From assembly GCA_963668595.1 (NCBI GenBank), contig OY764876.1, positions 3,923,554 through 3,987,553 on the forward strand: 64,000 bases of DNA. Reading direction: 5' to 3'. The DNA is from Prolixibacteraceae bacterium. GTDB taxonomy: Bacteria > Bacteroidota > Bacteroidia > Bacteroidales > Prolixibacteraceae. Below are positions 25,398 through 45,369 of this stretch, piece by piece. The position numbers and the translations under genes were made by a program. The notes below the pieces were generated by a model. That model did not search any database. It saw only the letters and a list, made by a program, of their open reading frames with translations, and had not been told where the DNA came from. Positions within the stretch are counted from its first letter, which is position 1. Each line of letters starts with the position of its first letter.

Positions 25398-26489
25398 ATG
25401 ATGAACAATAATTATTGTGTGATTATGGCCGGAGGAATCGGGAGCCGGTTCTGGCCAATCAGCAAATCGTCGAAACCCAAGCAATTTTTGGATATTCTCG
25501 GTGTTGGACGCTCGTTTATTCAGCAAACCTACGACCGGTTTCGGAGTATCATTCCTGCTGAAAATATTTATGTGGTTACCAGCATCGACTATACCGATCT
25601 GGTAAAAGAGCAGTTGCCCGAATTACCCGAAAGTCAGATATTATCGGAACCATTGAGGCGAAATACGGCTCCGTGTATTGCTTATGCAGCGTATAAAATA
25701 CATACTATCAATCCGGATGCAAATCTTATTATTGCTCCGTCTGATCATTTAATTCTGAAAGAAGAAGAGTTTTTACATCAGATAAAAACCGGATTGGATT
25801 TTGTTTCGAAAAATCCGGTGTTGCTGACTTTGGGCATTACTCCTAGCCGACCGGAAACTGGTTATGGCTACATTCAGGTTGATTATGCCGATGGATTGAA
25901 AGAACCAGCCAATTTGCATAAGGTGAAAACATTCACCGAAAAACCGGATGCAAAAATGGCCGAGTTATTTATGAGTAGCGGTGAATTTGTATGGAACTCG
26001 GGGATTTTTATCTGGTCGCTTCGGGCTATTTTATCGGCCTTCGATCAATATCTGGAGGAAGTTTCGTCGCGTTTCAGAAAAGGAATACAATTATACGGAA
26101 CCAGTGACGAACGTGCTTTTCTGAATAAAGCCTACTCGGAATGTCCAAATATTTCGATCGATTATGGGTTGATGGAGAAAGCCAATAACGTATATGTGCT
26201 CTGTGCCGATTTTGGCTGGAGCGATTTAGGAACATGGGGATCGCTATACGAAAATATAGAAAAAGATAAAGAAGGGAATGCTATTTCGGGAGCGAGGGTG
26301 ATGACCTACAATACTTCCAATTGTATTGTCAATTTCCCGGACGAAAAATTGGTCGTTTTGCAGGGGCTGAATGGCTTTGTGGTGGTCGAGTCGGAAGGAA
26401 CGCTGATGATTTGTCGCATGGAAGATGAGCAACAAATCCGTCAGTTTGTTACCGATGTAAGAATGAATGTGGGGGAGAAGTTTGTGTAG
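25398..26489 (+). CDS. manC: mannose-1-phosphate guanylyltransferase (no PMI domain), copy 1
   Basis: N-terminal MAGGIGSRFWPISK. GYGYI motif. 363 aa. Confidence 0.85.
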   Translation: MMNNNYCVIMAGGIGSRFWPISKSSKPKQFLDILGVGRSFIQQTYDRFRSIIPAENIYVVTSIDYTDLVKEQLPELPESQILSEPLRRNTAPCIAYAAYKIHTINPDANLIIAPSDHLILKEEEFLHQIKTGLDFVSKNPVLLTLGITPSRPETGYGYIQVDYADGLKEPANLHKVKTFTEKPDAKMAELFMSSGEFVWNSGIFIWSLRAILSAFDQYLEEVSSRFRKGIQLYGTSDERAFLNKAYSECPNISIDYGLMEKANNVYVLCADFGWSDLGTWGSLYENIEKDKEGNAISGARVMTYNTSNCIVNFPDEKLVVLQGLNGFVVVESEGTLMICRMEDEQQIRQFVTDVRMNVGEKFV

Positions 26490-35241: not shown

Positions 35242-35682
35242 GTGAAAATCTTGTTTGTAAGTTCCGGCGACGAATTGTGCCGGGCGTTGATTGCCCGGCA
35301 TATTCTTCATCAGCTTGATGAAAAGCTTGAGATTTTTGTTGCCGCAACAGAGCCTGTAATAGAAATCCCATCCTCTCAGTTTGTTGCCATGAAGGCACTC
35401 GGGTTTGATATCGATTCGGAACATTGCTCTAATCTGACAGAACTTTCCGGTGTTTCATTTGACTTCCTGATCACCATTAGCCATGGACTTCATTCGTTAT
35501 TGAAAAAAAATCCTCTCCATTTTAGTCATAAACTTCATATGGAATTTCAGGAAATAAGCAGTACTCAGGAATTACAGAAAGATGAGTTTGATTGTTTGAC
35601 CCGGCTTAGCGACGAGATGCGGGACGAACTCGCGTATTTTTATCATCATTATGTGGAGGAAAACAAGAATACTTTTGTTTGA
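35242..35682 (+). CDS. low-molecular-weight phosphatase/ArsC-like protein with a degenerate P-loop
   Basis: KILFVSSGDELCRALIA aligns to the LMW-PTP P-loop V-C-x-G-N-x-C-R-S, with the nucleophile Cys replaced by Ser. GTG start. Confidence 0.5.
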   Translation: MKILFVSSGDELCRALIARHILHQLDEKLEIFVAATEPVIEIPSSQFVAMKALGFDIDSEHCSNLTELSGVSFDFLITISHGLHSLLKKNPLHFSHKLHMEFQEISSTQELQKDEFDCLTRLSDEMRDELAYFYHHYVEENKNTFV

Positions 35683-35731: not shown

Positions 35732-36751
35732 TTAGGGCTTTCGTTGCGATGATTTTCTTACAACTAATTTAGTTTTTAAAATTGATTGAACCGGAGGGGC
35801 TGATGGCATATCAATTTGTCTGAAGAAAAGACGGGCTGCTTCTTGTCCGATTTCAAACGTGGGATGAGTTATTGAAGTCAGGGCGGGATCAACCACCGTA
35901 GCGTGAAACTCGTCGGTAAAACCAATCAATGCAATATCTTCAGGAATACGCAGTCCGCGTCGCTTTATTTCTTTCATGGCAGCAAATGCAACCGTGTCGT
36001 TGATGCCGAAAATAGCATCGGGTCTTTCCGGCAGGTCGAGCAAACGCGCTGTTGCTTGTGTTGCCTCCGATGTGCTCAGGTTGCATTGCTGCAAAAGCAA
36101 ATTATTCGCCGATAAGCCACATTCATGCAACCCTCTTTGGTAACCCTGTATTCGCTGCTGTGAGATGTTGAGCTGTGAAGGACCAGAGATATATGCAATT
36201 TTACGACATCCGTTTTCAACGAAATGACGGGTTATTTGGTATGCAGCTTCTTCGTTGTTCGCAACCACACTTGAAACGCGGTCAGTCATACAAACGCGGT
36301 CGAAAAATACCAATGGCAATTCATTTTTTAGCAGGGGTTCGAAATGTGAAAAAGAAGTAGTTTCCTGTGAAAGACAGGCGATAATTCCTTCAACCCGGGT
36401 ATTCAATAAATTCTGAATTGATTCTTTTTCTTTTTCGACTGACTCGTTTGAGGAAGAAATCAGGATGTAATAACCTCGCTGTTTGGCAATGCTTTCAATT
36501 CCGGAAATAATTGATGAGTAGAAATGAGTAACAAGGTCGGGAACAATTACCCCAATCATTTTGGTTTGCTGCTTTAATAGACCCATTGCCAGTGGATTTG
36601 GCGAATAGTTGCGTTCGCTGGCCAGCTGCTGAATGCGGGCACTAACTTCCGGGCTAATATCCGGATGGTTTTTCAATGCCCGAGAAACAGTAGAAATGGA
36701 AACTCCCAGTTCTTTTGCTAAATCCTTTAATGAAACAGGCCTTTTACTCAT
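35732..36751 (-). CDS. LacI family transcriptional regulator
   Basis: HTH LKDLAKELGVSISTVSRALKN plus a periplasmic-binding-fold sugar-binding domain. Confidence 0.92.
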   Translation of the reverse strand: MSKRPVSLKDLAKELGVSISTVSRALKNHPDISPEVSARIQQLASERNYSPNPLAMGLLKQQTKMIGVIVPDLVTHFYSSIISGIESIAKQRGYYILISSSNESVEKEKESIQNLLNTRVEGIIACLSQETTSFSHFEPLLKNELPLVFFDRVCMTDRVSSVVANNEEAAYQITRHFVENGCRKIAYISGPSQLNISQQRIQGYQRGLHECGLSANNLLLQQCNLSTSEATQATARLLDLPERPDAIFGINDTVAFAAMKEIKRRGLRIPEDIALIGFTDEFHATVVDPALTSITHPTFEIGQEAARLFFRQIDMPSAPPVQSILKTKLVVRKSSQRKP

Positions 36752-36752
36752 G

Positions 36753-36766
36753 TCGAATGCATTCGA
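36753..36766. promoter_or_regulatory. 14-bp perfect palindrome, candidate LacI-family operator
   Basis: TCGAATGCATTCGA lies 2 nt upstream of the lacI-family start codon, in the divergent region shared with the sugar operon. Confidence 0.4.
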
Positions 36767-36978
36767 TTCTCCTACAAATCTAAAGTTTTATTCAATAGCT
36801 ACGATTGAAAAGAGGTCTCTGTTTATGTTTGACAACATTTTTTTCTCTCCGCAATGCTTTGCGGAAACCTTTGCGCAAGTGATCAGAAAATCAGGGTATT
36901 GCGAAGAGTTTTTTTGATTGAGATATTTGCTCAGGAAAGAAAGGAAATATCTGATTAGTAAGAATAAAAAAGGAAAAA

Positions 36979-37953
36979 ATGAAAAGAATAGTTGTTGCAG
37001 GAGCCGGAGGTTTTATCGGCGGGCATTTAGCAAAAAAATTGCAGGAAATGGGTTATGTTGTTCGTGCGGTGGACAAAAAACCGTTGAATCAGTGGTATCA
37101 GGTTCACGAAGGGATAGACAATTTAGTGCTGGATTTAACAAGCAAAGAGAATTGCTACGCTGCATTGAATGGGTACAACGAAGTATTCAATTTGGCTGCC
37201 GATATGGGTGGAATGGGATTCATTGAGACACATAAAGCGGAGTGTATGCTAAGTGTGTTGATTAATACTCATTTGCTAATGGCTGCAAAAGATTTGGGTA
37301 TCACTCGTTTCTTTTATGCTTCATCGGCTTGTGTTTATAATGGCGAAAAGCAGCAAGATCCGAATAATCCGGGTTTGAAGGAAGCAGATGCATATCCTGC
37401 TCAGGCTGAAGATGGTTATGGCTGGGAAAAGTTGTTCTCAGAAAGAATGTGCCGCCATTTCCGCGAAGATTATGGTATTGAAACCCGTGTGGCTCGTTTC
37501 CACAATGTATATGGCCCTTACGGAACTTGGGATGGTGGTCGTGAAAAAGCTCCGGCTGCAATGTGCCGCAAAGTTCTTGAGTCAGAATTGTACGGAAAAG
37601 ATGAAATTAACATTTGGGGAGACGGAGAACAAACCCGCAGCTTCATGTATATCTCTGACTGTGTGGAAGGAATTCTGAAAATCATGTACAGCGATATTAT
37701 TGAGCCGATCAATCTGGGTAGCAGTGAGATGGTTTCAATCAATCAGTTAGTGGATATTGTTGAAGATATTGCCGGAATCAAATTAAAACGTACGTATGAT
37801 TTGAATGCTCCCAAGGGAGTGCGCGGACGCAATAGCGACAATACAATGATTCTTGAATTGCTCGGATGGGAACCTTCGCTTCCGTTAGCACAGGGAATGA
37901 AAGAAACTTACGAGTGGATTCGGACTCAAATGGTTCAAGGCGGAATTAAGTAA
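36979..37953 (+). CDS. gme: GDP-mannose 3,5-epimerase (plant GME type)
   Basis: Rossmann motif GAGGFIGGHL. ASSACVY and YGWEK (YxxxK). FHNVYGPYGTWDGGREKAPAAMCRK and GVRGRNSDN are near-identical to plant GME as I recall it (FHNIYGPFGTWKGGREKAPAAFCRK, GVRGRNSDN). Confidence 0.85.
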   Translation: MKRIVVAGAGGFIGGHLAKKLQEMGYVVRAVDKKPLNQWYQVHEGIDNLVLDLTSKENCYAALNGYNEVFNLAADMGGMGFIETHKAECMLSVLINTHLLMAAKDLGITRFFYASSACVYNGEKQQDPNNPGLKEADAYPAQAEDGYGWEKLFSERMCRHFREDYGIETRVARFHNVYGPYGTWDGGREKAPAAMCRKVLESELYGKDEINIWGDGEQTRSFMYISDCVEGILKIMYSDIIEPINLGSSEMVSINQLVDIVEDIAGIKLKRTYDLNAPKGVRGRNSDNTMILELLGWEPSLPLAQGMKETYEWIRTQMVQGGIK

Positions 37954-38042
37954 ATCTCTTCCAATAATAGAAATACAGGCGGGCTTAGTGGCTTGAAAAC
38001 CAAAGTCCGCTTTTTGTTTATAAACGAGTATTTGTTTTTACT

Positions 38043-39179
38043 ATGAGTGAAAAAAAAGTATTGGTTAGCGGATGTTACGATCTTTTGCATGCCGGACATG
38101 TTGCGTTTTTTAAATCGGCGTCGCAGTACGGGAAACTTTTTGTCAGTGTTGGTCAGGATGAGAATATCTTTGAATTAAAAGGGAAGAAACCTTATTTTTC
38201 ACAGGCCGAACGGGTGTACATGGTTGGTGCGGTAAAATATGTACACGAGGCATTTGTGTCTTCAGGTCAGGGGATGCTTGATTTTGAAGAAGATATGAAG
38301 CGCATCCAACCAGATATTTTCATTGTAAACACGGATGGATATACGGATGGCAAAGCCCGTATTTGTAAAGAAAACAATGTGGAACTTGTGGTTTTGGAGC
38401 GAATTCCGGAAGATGGTCTGCCTGCCCGGTCCAGTTCTTCGTCAAAAAAAGAATTGAAGTTTCCATACCGGATTTGTATTGCCGGAGGCTGGATGGATCA
38501 GCCCTGGGTGTCGGAAATATATCCCGGATCAGTAGTGGTTGCACAAATTTGGCCCAACATCGAATTTAACGATCGCTCCGGCATGGCAACCAGCTCCCGC
38601 GTTGTTGCTCAGGAATTATGGGGTGGCAAAATACCGGAAGGCGATCCGGTAGCAAATGCAAAACTATTATTTGGAGCAGAGAATCCTCCCGGAAGTAAAT
38701 ACATTTCGGGATCACAAGATCAGTTGGGCATTCTGGTTCCTGGAGTTAGTCGTTTGGATTATTCCGGAAATTACTGGCCTTCGCATATCGAAACTACCCG
38801 TCAGCAGGAAATCTGTGAGTGGCTGTCAGAAGTGCTGTATCTGGTTCCTCTTGCTCCTCGTCCTTGTGGTTACGACCCTTTACTTGAACAGCACCTCGAA
38901 AAAGAGTTTGTAAAAGAGTTAGGCGATTCAGGAAAGAAATGCTACGAAGCAATTCTTGCTAAAGACATACGATTGCTGGGGGAGTCGATGACTGAATCTT
39001 TTTATGCATGGAAGAAACTTCTTCCTTATACTGTGCCACAGTGGGTGCTCGAAGAAATGGAAGACAAATATATTGGGAGGTATGCAGGTGCCATTACTTC
39101 TGGTTGTGGTGGCGGCTATGTTGTGGTTGCCTCCGATAAATCTGTTGAAGGGGCAATTCAGATTAAAATAAAGTACTAA
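38043..39179 (+). CDS. bifunctional cytidylyltransferase-like nucleotidyltransferase / GHMP-family sugar kinase
   Basis: N-terminus has GCYDLLHAGH (the HxGH nucleotidyltransferase motif). C-terminus has GHMP motifs RSGMATSS and GCGGGY. 378 aa. Confidence 0.75.
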   Translation: MSEKKVLVSGCYDLLHAGHVAFFKSASQYGKLFVSVGQDENIFELKGKKPYFSQAERVYMVGAVKYVHEAFVSSGQGMLDFEEDMKRIQPDIFIVNTDGYTDGKARICKENNVELVVLERIPEDGLPARSSSSSKKELKFPYRICIAGGWMDQPWVSEIYPGSVVVAQIWPNIEFNDRSGMATSSRVVAQELWGGKIPEGDPVANAKLLFGAENPPGSKYISGSQDQLGILVPGVSRLDYSGNYWPSHIETTRQQEICEWLSEVLYLVPLAPRPCGYDPLLEQHLEKEFVKELGDSGKKCYEAILAKDIRLLGESMTESFYAWKKLLPYTVPQWVLEEMEDKYIGRYAGAITSGCGGGYVVVASDKSVEGAIQIKIKY

Positions 39180-39223
39180 GTGTTTGGTTTCATAGATCTA
39201 TAAATACATGTTAAGAGAAAAAA

Positions 39224-40858
39224 ATGAAGCAATATCTAATTGTCATCTTTATTTCACTAATAGGCTATTCGTACGGACAGGATATTAAGCGAGAACGCCC
39301 CCGAGAATGGGATAATCTTGTTTTCGGCGGAGCATTCATCGATCGATTTTTGCCGATCCCCCCGATAGGCGAACTGACGCATGATACTTGGGGATGTGAT
39401 GCAGTGAAACCTCGTTATGTGGAGAATGGAATCGAAGATCCGGCATGGTCGTATTGGGGGGGGAATATTGTTCGGGGAGACGATAGTTTGTACCATCTGT
39501 TTGTGTGTCGCTGGCCCGAAAATGCCGAAAAGGGACATATGGCCTGGCCCAGCTCTGAGGTGGTTCATGCTGTTTCGTCTAATAGGATGGGGCCCTACAA
39601 AGTAAAAGGCGAAGCTATCGGTAAAGGACATAATCCAGAATTGTTTCGGTTGAAAGATGGCCGCTATGTTATTTATGTTATTGATGGTTACTACATTTCA
39701 AATAGTCTGAATGGTCCCTGGAAAAAAGGGAAATTCCAATTTGATCCGCGGGATAGGAAGATTATCGAGGGTTTATCGAATTTGAGCTTTGCACAGCGGG
39801 AAGACGGATCGTTTCTGATGGTGTGTAGGGGTGGCGGAATTTGGGTGAGCCAAACAGGCTTATCGCCATGGAAGCAGGTGACCAACAAAAGTGTGTACCC
39901 GCCCTACAATGGGCGCTATGAAGATCCGGTGATTTGGCGGACAAATATTCAGTATCACATGATTGTGAACGACTGGTATGGGCGCATTGCTTATTATCTG
40001 AGGTCGGGCGACGGATTCAATTGGATTGTGGAGCCGGGCGAAGCCTATAAGCCGGGAATTGCCCGTTACGAAGACGGGACACTGGAAGACTGGTATAAAT
40101 ACGAGCGAATTAAAGTTTTACAAGATGAAATTGGCCGTCCTGTTCAAGCGAATTTTGCAGTGATCGACTCTTCAAAATGGCATGACTTCCCCAATGACAG
40201 GCATAGCTCAAAAAATATATGTATTCCACTTGCTGTTGAAAAGCAACTTTTAGTTCTGAATACAAAAAAAATAACCGCAAAAACAAAAAGCATTCGATTG
40301 AAGATTTTTGCTGAGCCTGATTTCAATCCACAAACAGATGTTGATTTTGCTTCGTTGCGATTGGGTTCGTCCGAAGAAGTAAATTTTGGGCGGGGATGCA
40401 CTGTTGTCAGAACCGAAAATGAAGGTGATAACATGGTGTTGGAGTTTGATGCAAAGGGCTTTGGTTTGACTAAAAATGAATCTGCTGCAAAATTGATTGG
40501 CAAAACGAATAACGGAAATTTGTTGTTCGGATATGCCCGTTTACCAGAAGTAGAATACGGCCGGGCGGTGCTTTCTTGCTTGAACCCGAAAATATTAACT
40601 TCAGAACTGATGTTGGAGGTGGAAAATTTTGGTTTATCTCCTTCTCGGAAAAGTCTTGTTTGTGTTGAGTTGACAGAAGGGAGTTGTGCTCCGATTGTTC
40701 TGGAAGGCGTTTTGCCCAAAATAATGCCTTATCAGAAAGAAGTAATTCATCTGAAAACGAAAGCCGGTATTTCTGAAAATCGGCAATATCATGTAAAAGT
40801 ATTTCTGAAAAATCAACCAGATGCAATGCCTCTGTGGGATTGTAAAATTGAAAATTAA
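39224..40858 (+). CDS. secreted glycoside hydrolase-like protein (five-bladed beta-propeller, GH43/GH117-like clan) with a C-terminal beta-sandwich domain
   Basis: Signal peptide. Repeated W/aromatic-rich blade pattern (SLYHLFVCRW, GRYVIYVIDG, GSFLMVCRGGGIW, YHMIVNDWYG). The family assignment is tentative. Confidence 0.55.
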   Translation: MKQYLIVIFISLIGYSYGQDIKRERPREWDNLVFGGAFIDRFLPIPPIGELTHDTWGCDAVKPRYVENGIEDPAWSYWGGNIVRGDDSLYHLFVCRWPENAEKGHMAWPSSEVVHAVSSNRMGPYKVKGEAIGKGHNPELFRLKDGRYVIYVIDGYYISNSLNGPWKKGKFQFDPRDRKIIEGLSNLSFAQREDGSFLMVCRGGGIWVSQTGLSPWKQVTNKSVYPPYNGRYEDPVIWRTNIQYHMIVNDWYGRIAYYLRSGDGFNWIVEPGEAYKPGIARYEDGTLEDWYKYERIKVLQDEIGRPVQANFAVIDSSKWHDFPNDRHSSKNICIPLAVEKQLLVLNTKKITAKTKSIRLKIFAEPDFNPQTDVDFASLRLGSSEEVNFGRGCTVVRTENEGDNMVLEFDAKGFGLTKNESAAKLIGKTNNGNLLFGYARLPEVEYGRAVLSCLNPKILTSELMLEVENFGLSPSRKSLVCVELTEGSCAPIVLEGVLPKIMPYQKEVIHLKTKAGISENRQYHVKVFLKNQPDAMPLWDCKIEN

Positions 40859-40859
40859 A

Positions 40860-41942
40860 ATGAAATCAATTCATTGCTTGATTATGGCCGGAGGCTCCGG
40901 TACGCGTTTCTGGCCACGGAGTCGGGCTGCCAGACCCAAACAGTTTTTGAAAATATTCGAGGACGAATCATTGATTCAGTCAACGGTAAGCCGTTTTTCA
41001 CGATTTACTCCAACTGAAAATATTTGGATCGTCTCAAATAAAAATCAGCAACAATTATTAGATGATCAATGTGCAGGACTTCGTCCTGAAAACCTGATTT
41101 ATGAACCCGCAGGACGAAATACCCTGCCCGCAATTGGCTTGTCGTCCATGCTTATTGCCCGGAATAATCCGGATGCGATGATGGTAGTGTCGCCGGCTGA
41201 CCATTTAATTAAAGATGATGGATTGTTTCAGCAAACGATCGAATCGGCCGTTTTGCTTGCCCGCCGGAATGATGCAATTGTTACCATCGGAATTACTCCG
41301 AATGCCCCCTCAACGGGGTATGGATACATTGAAATTAATCAGGAGGTCAATGTTGGCCAGCCAATTCGTTCTTTTTCCGTAACTCGCTTTGTCGAAAAAC
41401 CGGGTTTGGAAACTGCAATGCAATATGTATCATCCGGCCGTTTTTTCTGGAATTCAGGAATTTTTGTTTTTCGTGTCTCTGTTTTTATCGATTCCCTTCA
41501 GAAATATGCTCCCGAAACTTTTGAGAAACTAAAGACTATTGTCCGTTCATTCGGGCAAGAAGATTATGAAACTACCATAAATCAATTATATCCTGAAATA
41601 GAGGCAACTTCTGTTGATTACGGAATCATGGAAAAAGCGGACAATGTTTTTCTGGTTCAGGGAGATTTTGTCTGGAACGATTTAGGTAGCTGGGAAGAAG
41701 TATATAAATACGACACACGAAAGGATGAAAGCCGGAATGTTAGTTCCGGGAAGGTGATTTTGCATGATGTCCGGAATTCGTATGTATTTGCCGAATCCGG
41801 AGTCGTCGCTGTTGTTGGACTCAACGATGTAATCGTGGTTCAGGAAGGAGATACTTTTTTAGTGTGTAAACGCGAAAGTGCAGAAGAAATAAAAAGCGTT
41901 GTAACTAAATTGAAAAACAGAGATATGACGGACTATTTATAA
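40860..41942 (+). CDS. mannose-1-phosphate guanylyltransferase-like sugar-1-phosphate nucleotidyltransferase, copy 2
   Basis: MAGGSGTRFWPRSR and GYGYIE. The ATG at 40860 lies 1 nt after the upstream stop, so it is preferred over 40821. Confidence 0.85.
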   Translation: MKSIHCLIMAGGSGTRFWPRSRAARPKQFLKIFEDESLIQSTVSRFSRFTPTENIWIVSNKNQQQLLDDQCAGLRPENLIYEPAGRNTLPAIGLSSMLIARNNPDAMMVVSPADHLIKDDGLFQQTIESAVLLARRNDAIVTIGITPNAPSTGYGYIEINQEVNVGQPIRSFSVTRFVEKPGLETAMQYVSSGRFFWNSGIFVFRVSVFIDSLQKYAPETFEKLKTIVRSFGQEDYETTINQLYPEIEATSVDYGIMEKADNVFLVQGDFVWNDLGSWEEVYKYDTRKDESRNVSSGKVILHDVRNSYVFAESGVVAVVGLNDVIVVQEGDTFLVCKRESAEEIKSVVTKLKNRDMTDYL

Positions 41943-41961
41943 ACTTTAAACTAAACCAACT

Positions 41962-43461
41962 ATGCGAAAAAAAATTATCGGACTGTTTTGTCTATCATTT
42001 TGTGTATTGACTACAACCACGGGCCAATCGTTACCGAAAAAATTTACAACGACTGATGAATCTCTCAAACAATACCAGTATCCGGAATGGTTCAGAGATG
42101 CCAAATTCGGCATCTGGTCGCACTGGGGGCCACAGGCTGTGCCTCGTCAGGGCGATTGGTATGCAAAACGCTTGTATCAGGAAGGTGGCGATGCATATAA
42201 ATACCATCTGGAACATTACGGGCATCCCTCAAAATTTGGGTATAAGGATATTATTCCCTTATGGAAAGCAGAGCGCTGGAGTCCGGATCAATTAATGAAA
42301 TTGTATAAAAAAGTGGGAGCCCGCTATTTTGTAAGCATGGGTACTCATCATGATAACTTTTTCCTCTGGAATTCGAAGATACACAAATGGAATGCTGTGA
42401 ATATGGGGCCGAGGAAAGACGTGGTTGGTCTGTGGCAAAAAGCTGCCAGAAAAGAAGGTCTGCGCTTTGGCGTTTCGGAACATCTGGGAGCCAGTTATAC
42501 CTGGTTTCAGGTTGCCCGGGGTACCGATAAAAGTGGGTCAATGAGTGGTATTCCTTACGATGGAAATAATGAGCAATATGCCGACTTATATCATCCGGAA
42601 ACTTCGCCGGACGATAACGCCTGGCTCACAACGAATGCAACGAATCATCAAAACTGGCTGGCGAGTATTACTGAACTGATTGATATGTACCAGCCCGATT
42701 TGTTGTACTCGGATAGCGAATTGCCTTTTGGAGAAGTGGGACGAACTATGCTGGCTCATTTCTATAATCAGGATATGGCTAAAAATAATGGCAGACTGGA
42801 GGCGGTTTACAATTGTAAGCTTCGTCCTTCAGAGGGGCGTTGGGTGCAGGATATTGAACGTGGAGCAATGGATTCGATTAGTCCTTTCCCCTGGCAAACC
42901 GATACATCGATTGGTGATTGGTATTACCGAACCGGACAGAAGTATATGACCGGAACCGAAGTAGTGCAAATGCTGGTGGATATTGTCAGTAAAAATGGGA
43001 ATCTATTGCTGAATGTAGTTCAGACCCCGGAAGGCGATCTTGAACCGGATGTGTTGGCAATACTTGATGAAATAGCGCAATGGATGCATACAAATGGCGA
43101 AAGTATCTATGGAACCCGCCCCTGGAAAATATACGGAGAAGGTCCATCCACAACAATGAGGCAGGAAAAAGGTCATTTTGGAGGAGTCAAAGATGTTCGT
43201 CAGTATGAATCTTCAGACATTCGCTTTACAACAAAAGGGGAAACTCTTTATGCTTTTTGCATGACGAAACCGATAGCAAATATTAGAATTCTTTCATTAG
43301 GGAAAAATTCGAAGGTGTGTGGCAAAACGATTGAATCGGTAAAGCTGCTGGGAGGAAGCGAAAAACTGTGTTGGACACAGGGCGGTGAAGCTCTGGTAAT
43401 TTCGAAACCATCCCAATTGCCTTTGGGTGAGGTGTGTGTCTTAAAAATAAAGTTTAAATAG
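41962..43461 (+). CDS. alpha-L-fucosidase, GH29
   Basis: Signal peptide. YPEWFRDAKFGIWSHWGPQAV and YFVSMGTHHDNFFLW are typical GH29 blocks. Confidence 0.88.
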   Translation: MRKKIIGLFCLSFCVLTTTTGQSLPKKFTTTDESLKQYQYPEWFRDAKFGIWSHWGPQAVPRQGDWYAKRLYQEGGDAYKYHLEHYGHPSKFGYKDIIPLWKAERWSPDQLMKLYKKVGARYFVSMGTHHDNFFLWNSKIHKWNAVNMGPRKDVVGLWQKAARKEGLRFGVSEHLGASYTWFQVARGTDKSGSMSGIPYDGNNEQYADLYHPETSPDDNAWLTTNATNHQNWLASITELIDMYQPDLLYSDSELPFGEVGRTMLAHFYNQDMAKNNGRLEAVYNCKLRPSEGRWVQDIERGAMDSISPFPWQTDTSIGDWYYRTGQKYMTGTEVVQMLVDIVSKNGNLLLNVVQTPEGDLEPDVLAILDEIAQWMHTNGESIYGTRPWKIYGEGPSTTMRQEKGHFGGVKDVRQYESSDIRFTTKGETLYAFCMTKPIANIRILSLGKNSKVCGKTIESVKLLGGSEKLCWTQGGEALVISKPSQLPLGEVCVLKIKFK

Positions 43462-43525
43462 ATTTTCAGCAAGATTGCAATTGAGGTTCATGTAGAGCAG
43501 ATCAATAAAACCCAAAACAAGAGAG

Positions 43526-43879
43526 ATGACAACAGCTTACAAAAGGTTTTGTAAAACATTGACATTGGAAGATGATGATTTTCTGATAAGTGAATATAAA
43601 CGGGTACATGCTCCGGGATACGCATGGCCTGAAATAACTCAGGGAATGCGGGAAGTGGGAATCCTGGATATGGAAATATACATTCTCGGTACTCAGTTGT
43701 TTATGATTATGGATACTGTGGCTGATTTTGATCACGATCGGGCCATGGAGGAACTTGCAGATAAACCCCGTCAGTCAGAATGGGAAGCATTTGTCGCGCG
43801 TTTTCAGAAATCAGTAGCGGAGGCCAGTGCTGGTAAAAAGTGGACGCGAATGGAACGGATTTATAAAATGGGAATGTAG
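43526..43879 (+). CDS. L-rhamnose/L-fucose mutarotase family protein (RhaM-like)
   Basis: 117 aa. YKRVHAPGYAWPEI...GILDMEIY pattern of the RhaM/DUF718 fold. Confidence 0.75.
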   Translation: MTTAYKRFCKTLTLEDDDFLISEYKRVHAPGYAWPEITQGMREVGILDMEIYILGTQLFMIMDTVADFDHDRAMEELADKPRQSEWEAFVARFQKSVAEASAGKKWTRMERIYKMGM

Positions 43880-44070
43880 TTTGATTTTTACCGATGAGGG
43901 GTGTAATTGGGAAGTGATTAATGAATTCGAATTAGTCACGATAAGGGATGGAATGACAAATAGCCAGTAAATTATTATTTCTATTTCAATCAGGGAATAT
44001 CATTAACTTTTGTATTTTTAACACCCGGCAATTTGCCTGTAAACCTTAACAAACCAATAAAACAATCAAC

Positions 44071-45369
44071 GTGAACTCAACAATTAAGAAAAAAGTTGTA
44101 TCGGGGGAGGTGTTGGTCCCCTTTATCTTAATCACCAGCCTTTTTGCCCTTTGGGGATTCGCCAACGACATCACCAACCCGATGGTGGCGGCATTTAAAA
44201 CAGTTATGGAAATATCGAATGCAAAAGCAGCTTTGATTCAGTTCGCTTTTTATGGCGGTTATGCAACCATGGCCATTCCTGCCGCATTAATAATTAAACG
44301 ATATTCCTATAAAGTTGGCATCATTGTAGGCCTGTCGCTCTACGCGATTGGAGCCTTAATGTTTTTTCCCGCAGCTCAGTTCGAGATGTTTGGCTTCTTC
44401 CTGCTATCGTTATATATTTTGACTTTCGGATTGGCGTTTCTTGAAACAACTGCCAATCCATATATTTTGTCTATGGGAGACCCGGCAACAGCAACCCGCC
44501 GGTTGAATTTAGCTCAGGCATTTAATCCGATGGGATCTTTATTGGGAATGGTTGTCGCATCACAGGTAATACTTCCTCACCTGATTTCAGATAGGCGAGA
44601 TACTGCCGGAAATTTGATTTTCGACACGTTAAGCGCGGCAGAGAAAGCAAGCATTCGTACGCACGACCTGGCTGTAATCCGAAACCCATACGTAATGCTG
44701 GGTTTTGTTGTCATTGCCATGCTGGTGGTTATTGCTGTTTCAAAAATGCCTAAGCGGGATGACGAAGGACAGGCAGTACGAGCCATTGATTCGGCTAAAC
44801 GACTAGTGAGAAATAAAATCTACCGGGAAGGCGTAATTGCCCAGGTGTTTTATGTCGGCGCGCAGATCATGTGCTGGACATTTATTATTCAGTATGCTGA
44901 AAATTTGGGATTGTCGAAAGCCGAAGCTCAGCGGTATAATATTGCAGCAATGGTAATTTTTCTGCTTAGTCGTTTTGTTAGCACCGGATTGATGAAATAC
45001 CTGAATGCCCGATTTATGCTGATGATTTTTGCAATTGGTGGAATATTAACAACTACGGGAGTTATTCTTATTCAGGGAATGCCCGGATTATATTTGTTGG
45101 TTGCAACCTCTGCATTCATGTCTCTCATGTTTCCAACTATTTATGGTATTGCACTCGAAAATGTAGGTGGCGACGCAACACTTGGCGCTGCAGGTTTGGT
45201 AATGGCCATTGTAGGGGGCGCGTTAATGCCACCGTTGCAAGGACTCATTATTGACCAGGGAAACATTGCATGGTTGCCTGCCGTTAATTTTTCTTTTGTT
45301 CTTCCGCTGATTTGCTTTCTGGTAATTGCGGTTTATGGCTACCGCGCTTATGGAAGTCTGAAAAAGTAG
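44071..45369 (+). CDS. fucP: L-fucose:H+ symporter family MFS permease
   Basis: 432 aa, 12-TM MFS protein. LFALWGFANDITNPMV is the FucP/glucose-galactose transporter N-terminal signature. Confidence 0.85.
   Translation: MNSTIKKKVVSGEVLVPFILITSLFALWGFANDITNPMVAAFKTVMEISNAKAALIQFAFYGGYATMAIPAALIIKRYSYKVGIIVGLSLYAIGALMFFPAAQFEMFGFFLLSLYILTFGLAFLETTANPYILSMGDPATATRRLNLAQAFNPMGSLLGMVVASQVILPHLISDRRDTAGNLIFDTLSAAEKASIRTHDLAVIRNPYVMLGFVVIAMLVVIAVSKMPKRDDEGQAVRAIDSAKRLVRNKIYREGVIAQVFYVGAQIMCWTFIIQYAENLGLSKAEAQRYNIAAMVIFLLSRFVSTGLMKYLNARFMLMIFAIGGILTTTGVILIQGMPGLYLLVATSAFMSLMFPTIYGIALENVGGDATLGAAGLVMAIVGGALMPPLQGLIIDQGNIAWLPAVNFSFVLPLICFLVIAVYGYRAYGSLKK

Follow-up and report, generated by a model that had tools for sequence, protein, structure and literature searches.

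What does a GDP-mannose 3,5-epimerase of the plant type (GME) do in a bacterial operon that also codes for a glycosidase, a mutarotase, and a sugar transporter? This question is raised by a locus of a Prolixibacteraceae bacterium, located at positions 35732-45369 of the 64,000-nucleotide (nt) stretch of DNA that we analyzed. The whole stretch, referred to here as the window, corresponds to C1:3923554-3987553 (contig OY764876.1) of a complete 4.6-Mb genome (completeness 99.99%). In the locus, a minus-strand LacI gene is divergent from seven plus-strand genes, which are separated by gaps of 1-191 nt and code, in this order, for GME, a fused nucleotidyltransferase-kinase (NTK), a secreted beta-propeller protein, a ManC-type guanylyltransferase, a GH29 glycosidase, a RhaM-family mutarotase, and a FucP-type symporter. 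An initial annotation had listed the same set; all eight genes were found at the coordinates it gave, and their identities were upheld by Pfam, NCBIfam, and PDB sequence searches.

The answer that we favor, with modest confidence, is that the locus represents a catabolic operon under the control of LacI, dedicated to L-galactose or to glycans capped with it. The operon would work in a Leloir/Isselbacher-like manner with GDP-sugars. A candidate gene for every role (mutarotase, anomeric kinase, nucleotidyltransferase, epimerase, releasing transferase, and uptake) is found in this one LacI-linked operon, which has a conserved operator. A Leloir-like route for L-galactose or L-fucose had already been proposed in the initial annotation. 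This proposal has gained support from four lines of sequence evidence: the invariant GME-NTK pair, the recurrence of its partner genes, a natural fusion of RhaM with the nucleotidyltransferase and the kinase, and the similarity of the GH29 enzyme to BpGH29. Catabolic operons are typically equipped with a repressor and a permease, along with a mutarotase and secreted glycosidases.

The epimerase GME

In a PDB sequence search, GME (36979-37953, plus strand) matched the Arabidopsis GDP-mannose 3,5-epimerase (AtGME, 2c59) with 330 bits and an E-value of 1.4e-97 over residues 3-319. The runner-up SDR family, UDP-glucuronate decarboxylase, reached an E-value of 1.8e-29. The blocks SSAC, YGxEK, GGREKAPAA, and GVRGRNSDN are all included in the alignment with 2c59. 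The NAD-binding motif GxxGxxG (at G8) and the YxxxK motif are kept, as are the two acid/base residues, Cys145 and Lys217 in AtGME numbering. None of the 78 NTK-linked GMEs that were compared deviates at residues C118, Y147, K151, and K190, which correspond to C145, Y174, K178, and K217 of AtGME. By similarity and by its catalytic residues, the epimerase from the window is to be considered a genuine GME. The roles given for GME in a 2022 review are biosynthetic throughout (vitamin C, cell walls, lipopolysaccharide [LPS], and antibiotics).

The fused nucleotidyltransferase-kinase NTK

NTK (38043-39179, plus strand; 378 residues) consists of an HxGH cytidylyltransferase-fold domain (residues ~1-135) and a compact domain resembling GHMP sugar-1-kinases (residues ~140-378). 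The first domain is detected by PF01467 (residues 8-133, 1.6e-13) and is followed by about 240 residues without a Pfam match. The Pfam models GHMP_kinases_N and GHMP_kinases_C do not match NTK from the window, and GHMP_kinases_C was found in NTK relatives (3.7e-7 and 1.3e-6). The AlphaFold2 (AF2) model has a mean pLDDT of 90.9 and shows two domains with a short disordered linker between them. When these were searched with Foldseek, the N-terminal domain retrieved TagD, HldC, and the Fom1 cytidylyltransferase, and the C-terminal domain retrieved the anomeric kinases WcbL (a heptokinase), the fucokinase part of FKP (9iip, E 4e-8), and BT 3k85.

An alignment of 35 sequences, with relatives down to 30% sequence identity, retains H16-x-G18-H19, (R)SS(T), PYRIxLAGGWxDQP, RSGMATS(T)R, SGSQD, and GAGGGGY. 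Among close relatives, HxGH, R129-S-S-S, GMATS, SGxQD, and GGGY are invariant. The retained motifs comprise the hallmarks of HxGH nucleotidyltransferases together with three motifs of the GHMP kinase type. One relative (P0249) is a triple fusion of RhaM, nucleotidyltransferase, and GHMP domains, and the genes that come next code for an MFS transporter and a GH29 enzyme. Mutarotase and kinase are thereby linked to each other and to a sugar that is released by GH29. The FKP kinase accepts L-fucose and D-arabinose as well as L-galactose, and L-fucose is preferred by FKP-type kinases (PMC11982464). Sugars of the L-galacto configuration would thus suit the type of kinase found in NTK.

Conservation of the GME-NTK pair

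A pattern search with one genome per species revealed at least 563 loci with an NTK relative, of which the best 80 were analyzed. A GME-NTK-type locus is, as judged from these sequences, conserved in hundreds of bacterial species. In every one of the 77 untruncated loci, the gene next to NTK on its upstream side is GME, and the median distance between the two is 74 nt; the other three are found on contigs that start at NTK. By clustering of open reading frames (ORFs), the partners in the 80 loci are LacI (49 loci), GH29 (42, plus 11 for another type of GH29), ManC (41), FucP or another MFS transporter (31), and RhaM (28). FucI (8), a GH43/32-like protein (7), and GH95 (6) are rarer. No glycosyltransferase family recurs beside the GME-NTK pair across the 80 loci. 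Most of the loci are from Prolixibacteraceae, to which the nearest relatives by NTK belong, and from other Bacteroidales. Others are of the Melioribacter/Ignavibacteria type or from Calditrichaceae, so that at least three phylum-level groups are represented. Among the carriers are cultured organisms such as Tangfeifania diversioriginum (L068), Draconibacterium aestuarii (L071), and a Maribellus species (L067).

When 401 evenly sampled Bacteroidota genomes, among them the genome under study, were examined, 29 had a GME-like gene and 11 had an NTK-like gene. Within this sample, GME always precedes NTKs with at least 62% sequence identity to that of the window. Two GME-NTK pairs occur in one genome, where the second pair is only 48%/44% identical to that of the window, and in another genome the adjacent pair is 47%/42% identical. 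Five genomes have an NTK with 42-46% sequence identity and no GME.

The strict coupling indicates that GME uses as its substrate the nucleotide sugar produced by NTK, or the reverse. With the identity of GME, the sugar handled by NTK is tied to the pair GDP-mannose/GDP-L-galactose.

Two further observations were made on relatives of NTK. In genome G261, the NTK homologue (C11:44401-45532) appears to be split into two overlapping pieces with one in-frame TAG, and GME is found on another contig; this homologue may be a decaying copy. Protein P0245 (539 residues; L103/L104 8001-9620), which occurs on many contigs, has two cytidylyltransferase-like domains and a GHMP-like domain. Its neighborhood is that of LPS core synthesis (GT9, LpxD, LpxI, Kdo kinase), and it may be an enzyme that activates heptose or another core sugar and replaces HldE.

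A proposed route from L-galactose to fructose-6-phosphate

We rate the chances as about even that many Bacteroidota, Ignavibacteria-type bacteria, and Calditrichaceae catabolize L-galactose via a hitherto undescribed GDP route, in which NTK would be a GHMP-type L-galactokinase combined with a GTP-using L-galactose-1-phosphate guanylyltransferase, and in which GME would run "backwards". Alpha-L-galactose would be set free by the secreted GH29 enzyme and, in the genome under study, also by the beta-propeller protein. It would be imported through FucP, and the RhaM-type mutarotase would supply the anomer needed by the kinase. The GHMP domain of NTK would then form beta-L-galactose-1-phosphate, which the HxGH domain would convert with GTP to GDP-L-galactose and pyrophosphate (PPi). 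GME would epimerize GDP-L-galactose to GDP-D-mannose, which would be the thermodynamically favored side; the equilibrium of GME favors GDP-mannose. The operon ManC, working in reverse, would convert GDP-mannose and PPi to mannose-1-phosphate and GTP. Finally, a PMM-family mutase and ManA, both encoded elsewhere, would lead via mannose-6-phosphate to fructose-6-phosphate; ManA and two PGM/PMM-family genes are indeed found elsewhere in the genome. The net cost would be one ATP per hexose, with GTP and PPi being recycled.

The initial annotation had considered such a route to be undescribed for Bacteroidota. In agreement with this, a full-text literature search turned up no paper on a GME-based catabolic or salvage route for L-galactose in bacteria; the search covered few subscription journals, and prior work is possible. 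The enzyme families and the logic of the pathway are known, and what would be new is the combination of genes, the fused enzyme, and the direction in which GME is used.

ManC, GH29, RhaM, and FucP

The operon ManC (40860-41942, plus strand) is, by its domains, a mannose-1-phosphate guanylyltransferase of the ManC type (PF00483, 2e-43; PF22640, 4e-15) without a phosphomannose isomerase (PMI) domain. The protein lacks the part that corresponds to the PMI half of TIGR01479, and its score against this model (322.5 bits over model positions 2-352) therefore stays below the cut-off of 372.95. A start at 40860 (M14 of the ORF) is more likely than one at 40821, since it is located 1 nt past the preceding stop codon and just ahead of the LIMAGG motif. 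A stand-alone paralogue with 35% sequence identity is encoded at 25398-26489 of the window, amid DUF4252 and MscS genes, and is presumably the housekeeping enzyme for GDP-mannose. The operon ManC, being a second copy, would fit as the releasing step.

The GH29 glycosidase (41962-43461, plus strand) has a signal peptide, matches PF01120 (1.9e-89) and Fucosidase_C, and is assigned to the BpGH29 clade. Its best relatives among solved structures are 7LJJ and 7LNP, which are described as "exo-alpha-L-galactosidase", and 7SNK, which is the same enzyme (322 bits, E ~1e-95, residues 35-499). The next solved GH29 after BpGH29 scored 199 bits (8e-58). Two further alpha-L-galactosidases, both from a restricted part of the GH29 tree, have been reported in a 2026 preprint.

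The RhaM-family mutarotase (43526-43879, plus strand; PF05336, 2e-25) has the L-fucose mutarotase 7byu as its sole match in the PDB sequence search. The symporter of the major facilitator superfamily (MFS) (44071-45369, plus strand) is a FucP-type sugar:H+ symporter, with 600 bits against TIGR00885 (cut-off 280). FucP from E. coli is known to transport L-galactose as well. An AT-rich gap of 191 nt (43880-44070) separates the mutarotase gene from that for FucP, and the order of FucP, RhaM, and GH29 differs among related loci. These two features suggest that FucP may have its own promoter.

Regulator and operator

The divergent LacI-family transcriptional regulator (35732-36751, minus strand) is composed of PF00356 and Peripla_BP_1/3 domains. 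An orthologue (59-82% sequence identity) is similarly divergent in most of the 49 loci that have a LacI-type gene. In the intergenic region between LacI and GME, CGCAATGCTTTGCG and CGGAAACCTTTGCG form a pair of overlapping 14-bp palindromes at 36850-36875 that resemble operator sites. This tandem CGCAAnnnTTTGCG pair is predicted to be a conserved operator: the pattern CGCAA(A)nnTTTGCG, often doubled, is found in nearly all of 36 orthologous LacI-GME intergenic regions. When the genome was scanned with at most one mismatch, five sites were obtained, two of which are the pair at 36850-36875. This genome-wide scan revealed no convincing further members of the regulon; the only perfect site adjoins another LacI-type gene.

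A different 14-bp palindrome, at 36753-36766 and thus beside the LacI start, had been pointed out in the initial annotation. This perfect palindrome (TCGAATGCATTCGA) is real, yet none of the orthologous intergenic regions that were examined contains it, and it is probably not the operator.

The secreted beta-propeller protein

The gene between NTK and ManC (39224-40858, plus strand) codes for a protein of 544 residues with an N-terminus that resembles a signal peptide. Pfam, NCBIfam, and PDB sequence searches returned no match. The AF2 model (pLDDT 85) shows a five-bladed beta-propeller followed by C-terminal beta-sandwich domains, and we annotate the protein from this predicted structure as glycoside-hydrolase-like. 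When the model was compared with VIA-align, GH117, GH62, and GH43 tied at Z ~20, which prevents assignment to any one of these families. The new alpha-galactosidase family from the above-mentioned preprint is unrelated, being a TIM-barrel alpha-D-galactosidase.

The 544-residue protein belongs to a family with more than 3000 database members from Bacteroidota and Planctomycetota, for which "glycoside hydrolase family protein" is the most specific annotation and no Pfam model exists. Three homologues (L117 9001-10611, L118 9001-10662, and L119 9001-10668) are encoded in polysaccharide utilization loci (PULs) beside GH95, GH29, GH2, GH127, or sulfatase genes. The family is a candidate for an unclassified glycoside hydrolase family that acts on glycans containing fucose or L-galactose. 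Because the gene was found in only two of the 80 related loci, it is considered a lineage-specific insertion.

Genome setting

No SusC/SusD pair adjoins the operon, and the flanking genes code for a peptidase S9, MscS, Cpn10, TatD, an asparaginase, and ExbB. A 146-residue ORF just upstream of the LacI gene (35242-35682) has no Pfam match at E <= 1e-5. A scan for sigma-70 promoters and terminators, which is ill-suited to Bacteroidota promoters, gave counts that did not exceed those for shuffled sequence. Four wastewater runs labelled as RNA-Seq, which possibly represent DNA, contain just short contigs that are scattered over the operon and cannot serve as evidence of a transcript or of induction; none of the listed datasets that contain the stretch is recorded as RNA.

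A fucose isomerase, a fuculokinase, and a fuculose-phosphate aldolase were said in the initial annotation to be missing from the window, and no fucI, fucK-like, or fucA-like match was found inside it. The initial annotation had also called for a search for fucIAK across the genome, which gave a clear result for fucI. A bona fide FucI, the only one in the genome, is encoded at C1:704024-705781 and scores above the equivalog cut-off, so that at least the entry enzyme of a separate route for L-fucose is present. For fucA and fucK, the E. coli equivalog models proved too narrow, with a Bacteroides control scoring below the cut-off. In the FucI region (C1:701453-705806; L090 6453-10806), the genes that come next code for a DUF6786 protein (PF20583, with an E-value of 3.5e-165) and for a regulator that combines a GntR-type helix-turn-helix with a periplasmic-binding domain. 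Neither a fuculokinase nor an aldolase adjoins FucI in this region. The DUF6786 protein may be an unrecognized partner in the metabolism of L-fucose or D-arabinose.

Alternative explanations

Several observations weigh against a role of the operon in L-galactose catabolism. ManC is missing from 39 of the 80 loci, where the missing step would have to be supplied by a housekeeping ManC. Similarity of the GH29 enzyme to BpGH29 does not by itself give specificity. HxGH nucleotidyltransferases typically use CTP or ATP rather than GTP, and we know of no characterized PF01467-type nucleotidyltransferase that uses GTP. The organism has been sampled from the subsurface, groundwater, and wastewater, where a supply of L-galactose is not obvious. 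Further observations on relatives of NTK and GME point to biosynthesis, and are best considered together with the explanation that they favor.

According to this explanation, of which a salvage version had been named as an alternative in the initial annotation, the operon is a supply module for GDP-L-galactose or GDP-L-fucose, with ManC and GME acting in de novo synthesis, GH29, FucP, RhaM, and NTK in salvage, and glycosyltransferases encoded elsewhere drawing on the pool. We regard it as a serious rival, although on balance a rather unlikely one. Distant NTK relatives (42-48% sequence identity) either lack any GME or are found in LPS/glycosyltransferase clusters among GT2, GT4, GT9, and lipid A/Kdo genes, and in some proteins the GHMP part is joined to glycosyltransferase domains. 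Judging from such contexts, the wider NTK family clearly serves biosynthesis, and glycan salvage is the likely role of the more distant relatives. In genome G311 (L109 8686-10598), a GME with 68% sequence identity but without NTK is encoded beside GT11 in a long co-oriented array that resembles glycan-synthesis clusters. Such GMEs can thus serve biosynthesis, and the GT11 linkage suggests L-galactose-containing surface glycans in some Bacteroidota. For Amuc_1591 from Akkermansia muciniphila, which by description has the same two-domain architecture as NTK, a role as "fucose-nucleotidyltransferase" that feeds L-fucose into LPS has been proposed, based on D-arabinose-resistance mutations and on rescue by L-fucose (Lakey et al., Gut Microbes 2026, PMC13313206). 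The genome under study has no Gmd above the cut-off and no PF07959 match that would indicate Fkp, so that NTK would be the sole route to GDP-L-fucose. The main weakness of a supply module is the finding that glycosidases, transporters, a mutarotase, and LacI recur in the 80 loci instead of any glycosyltransferase family. In addition, no glycan-synthesis genes are found in the flanks within the window, and co-induction of de novo synthesis and scavenging under a single sugar-type repressor would be unusual. A search of the genome for GT11 was also blank; it was made without a positive control, and control genomes were equally blank, so that it carries little weight.

Improbable, in our view, is a reading in which the pathway handles another L-galacto-configured sugar, such as L-fucose (converted via GDP-L-fucose to GDP-D-rhamnose) or D-arabinose, or in which the intermediates are CDP- or ADP-sugars with an adapted epimerase. 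The above-mentioned nucleotide preference of HxGH transferases would fit the latter version. In favor of another sugar, FucP, GH29, and RhaM each represent what is nominally a "fucose" family, FKP-type kinases prefer L-fucose, and the Akkermansia protein, a homologue by architecture, responds to L-fucose and D-arabinose. These points have to be set against an epimerase that is close to plant GME throughout and has all catalytic residues, and against the presence of a guanylyltransferase within the operon. L-fucose fits less well than L-galactose because GDP-D-rhamnose has no evident catabolic outlet, because a separate FucI is encoded in the genome, and because the GH29 enzyme groups with an L-galactosidase. 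That the genes are mere neighbors with unrelated functions seems very improbable. The propeller gene, which is lineage-specific, and the 191-nt gap ahead of FucP would be in line with this. However, the adjacency of GME and NTK in 77 of 77 loci over at least three phylum-level groups, the recurring accessory set, the conserved operator, and the Rosetta-stone fusion all argue for a functional unit.

Comparison with known systems

If the operon is devoted to L-galactose catabolism, its closest parallel is the Leloir route for D-galactose and its Isselbacher variant, which relies on a pyrophosphorylase; the enzymes are GalM, GalK, either UDP-sugar pyrophosphorylase or GalT, and GalE. The proposed route would be the exact counterpart of the Isselbacher form with GDP and an L-sugar. 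In both, a mutarotase and a GHMP kinase for the anomeric position would act first, the sugar would then be activated to its nucleotide form, an SDR epimerase would convert this to the nucleotide sugar of a common hexose, and a hexose-1-phosphate would be released with recycling of the nucleotide. As predicted differences, GDP would take the place of UDP and an L-sugar that of a D-sugar, the epimerase would be a 3,5-double epimerase rather than a 4-epimerase, and the product would be mannose-1-phosphate rather than glucose-1-phosphate. Furthermore, kinase and transferase are fused in the locus, and the transferase has a cytidylyltransferase fold. With the Smirnoff-Wheeler ascorbate pathway of plants, the locus shares a ManC-type step and the GME reaction between GDP-D-mannose and GDP-L-galactose. 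Plants run this reaction from mannose to L-galactose, with L-galactose-1-phosphate being set free by the HIT-family phosphorylase VTC2, whereas the direction proposed for the locus is reversed, and the kinase/transferase fusion would replace VTC2.

An oxidative L-galactose pathway in Bacteroides vulgatus, consisting of L-galactose dehydrogenase, a lactonase, and L-galactonate dehydrogenase, was reportedly described by Hobbs and colleagues in 2014. This is, to our knowledge, the only catabolic route for L-galactose known in Bacteroidota. The substrate would be shared with the operon described here, but the B. vulgatus route proceeds by oxidation to L-galactonate and D-tagaturonate and does not involve nucleotide sugars. 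BpGH29 (7LJJ, 7SNK), the nearest solved relative of the operon GH29, is from the porphyran PUL of Bacteroides plebeius. It acts on desulfated porphyran oligosaccharides in a PUL with SusC/D, whereas the gene for the operon GH29 belongs to a small operon for a cytoplasmic pathway, and its host is a non-marine bacterium.

In its working, NTK would resemble Fkp from Bacteroides fragilis, a bifunctional L-fucokinase/GDP-L-fucose pyrophosphorylase (PDB 9iip, 9iit), as both combine a GHMP anomeric kinase for sugars of the L-galacto configuration and a sugar-1-phosphate nucleotidyltransferase in one protein, and the kinase structures match. It nevertheless falls outside the Fkp family, having 378 residues and an HxGH domain (PF01467), whereas Fkp has about 950 residues and a PF07959-type domain and works in glycan salvage with no link to GME. 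Amuc_1591 is described as having an N-terminal adenylyl/cytidylyltransferase and a C-terminal fucokinase-like domain, and its name is the NCBI product name of the NTK family. It differs from NTK in the LPS role proposed for it and in its predicted transcriptional unit with murJ, and the terms "epimerase" and "GDP-mannose" are absent from the main text of that report (PMC13313206).

Implications

If the proposed route is correct, it would represent the first catabolic role for a GDP-mannose 3,5-epimerase. NTK would be a new compact kinase/guanylyltransferase, which might permit one-pot synthesis of GDP-L-galactose, GDP-L-fucose, and analogues for glycoengineering, and the label "cytidyltransferase-like protein" would be corrected on thousands of database entries. 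The GME-NTK pair would serve as a metagenome marker for the use of L-galactose. For the organisms themselves, it would mean that anaerobic bacteria from sediment, groundwater, and wastewater make use of plant, algal, or animal L-galactose at the cost of a single ATP.

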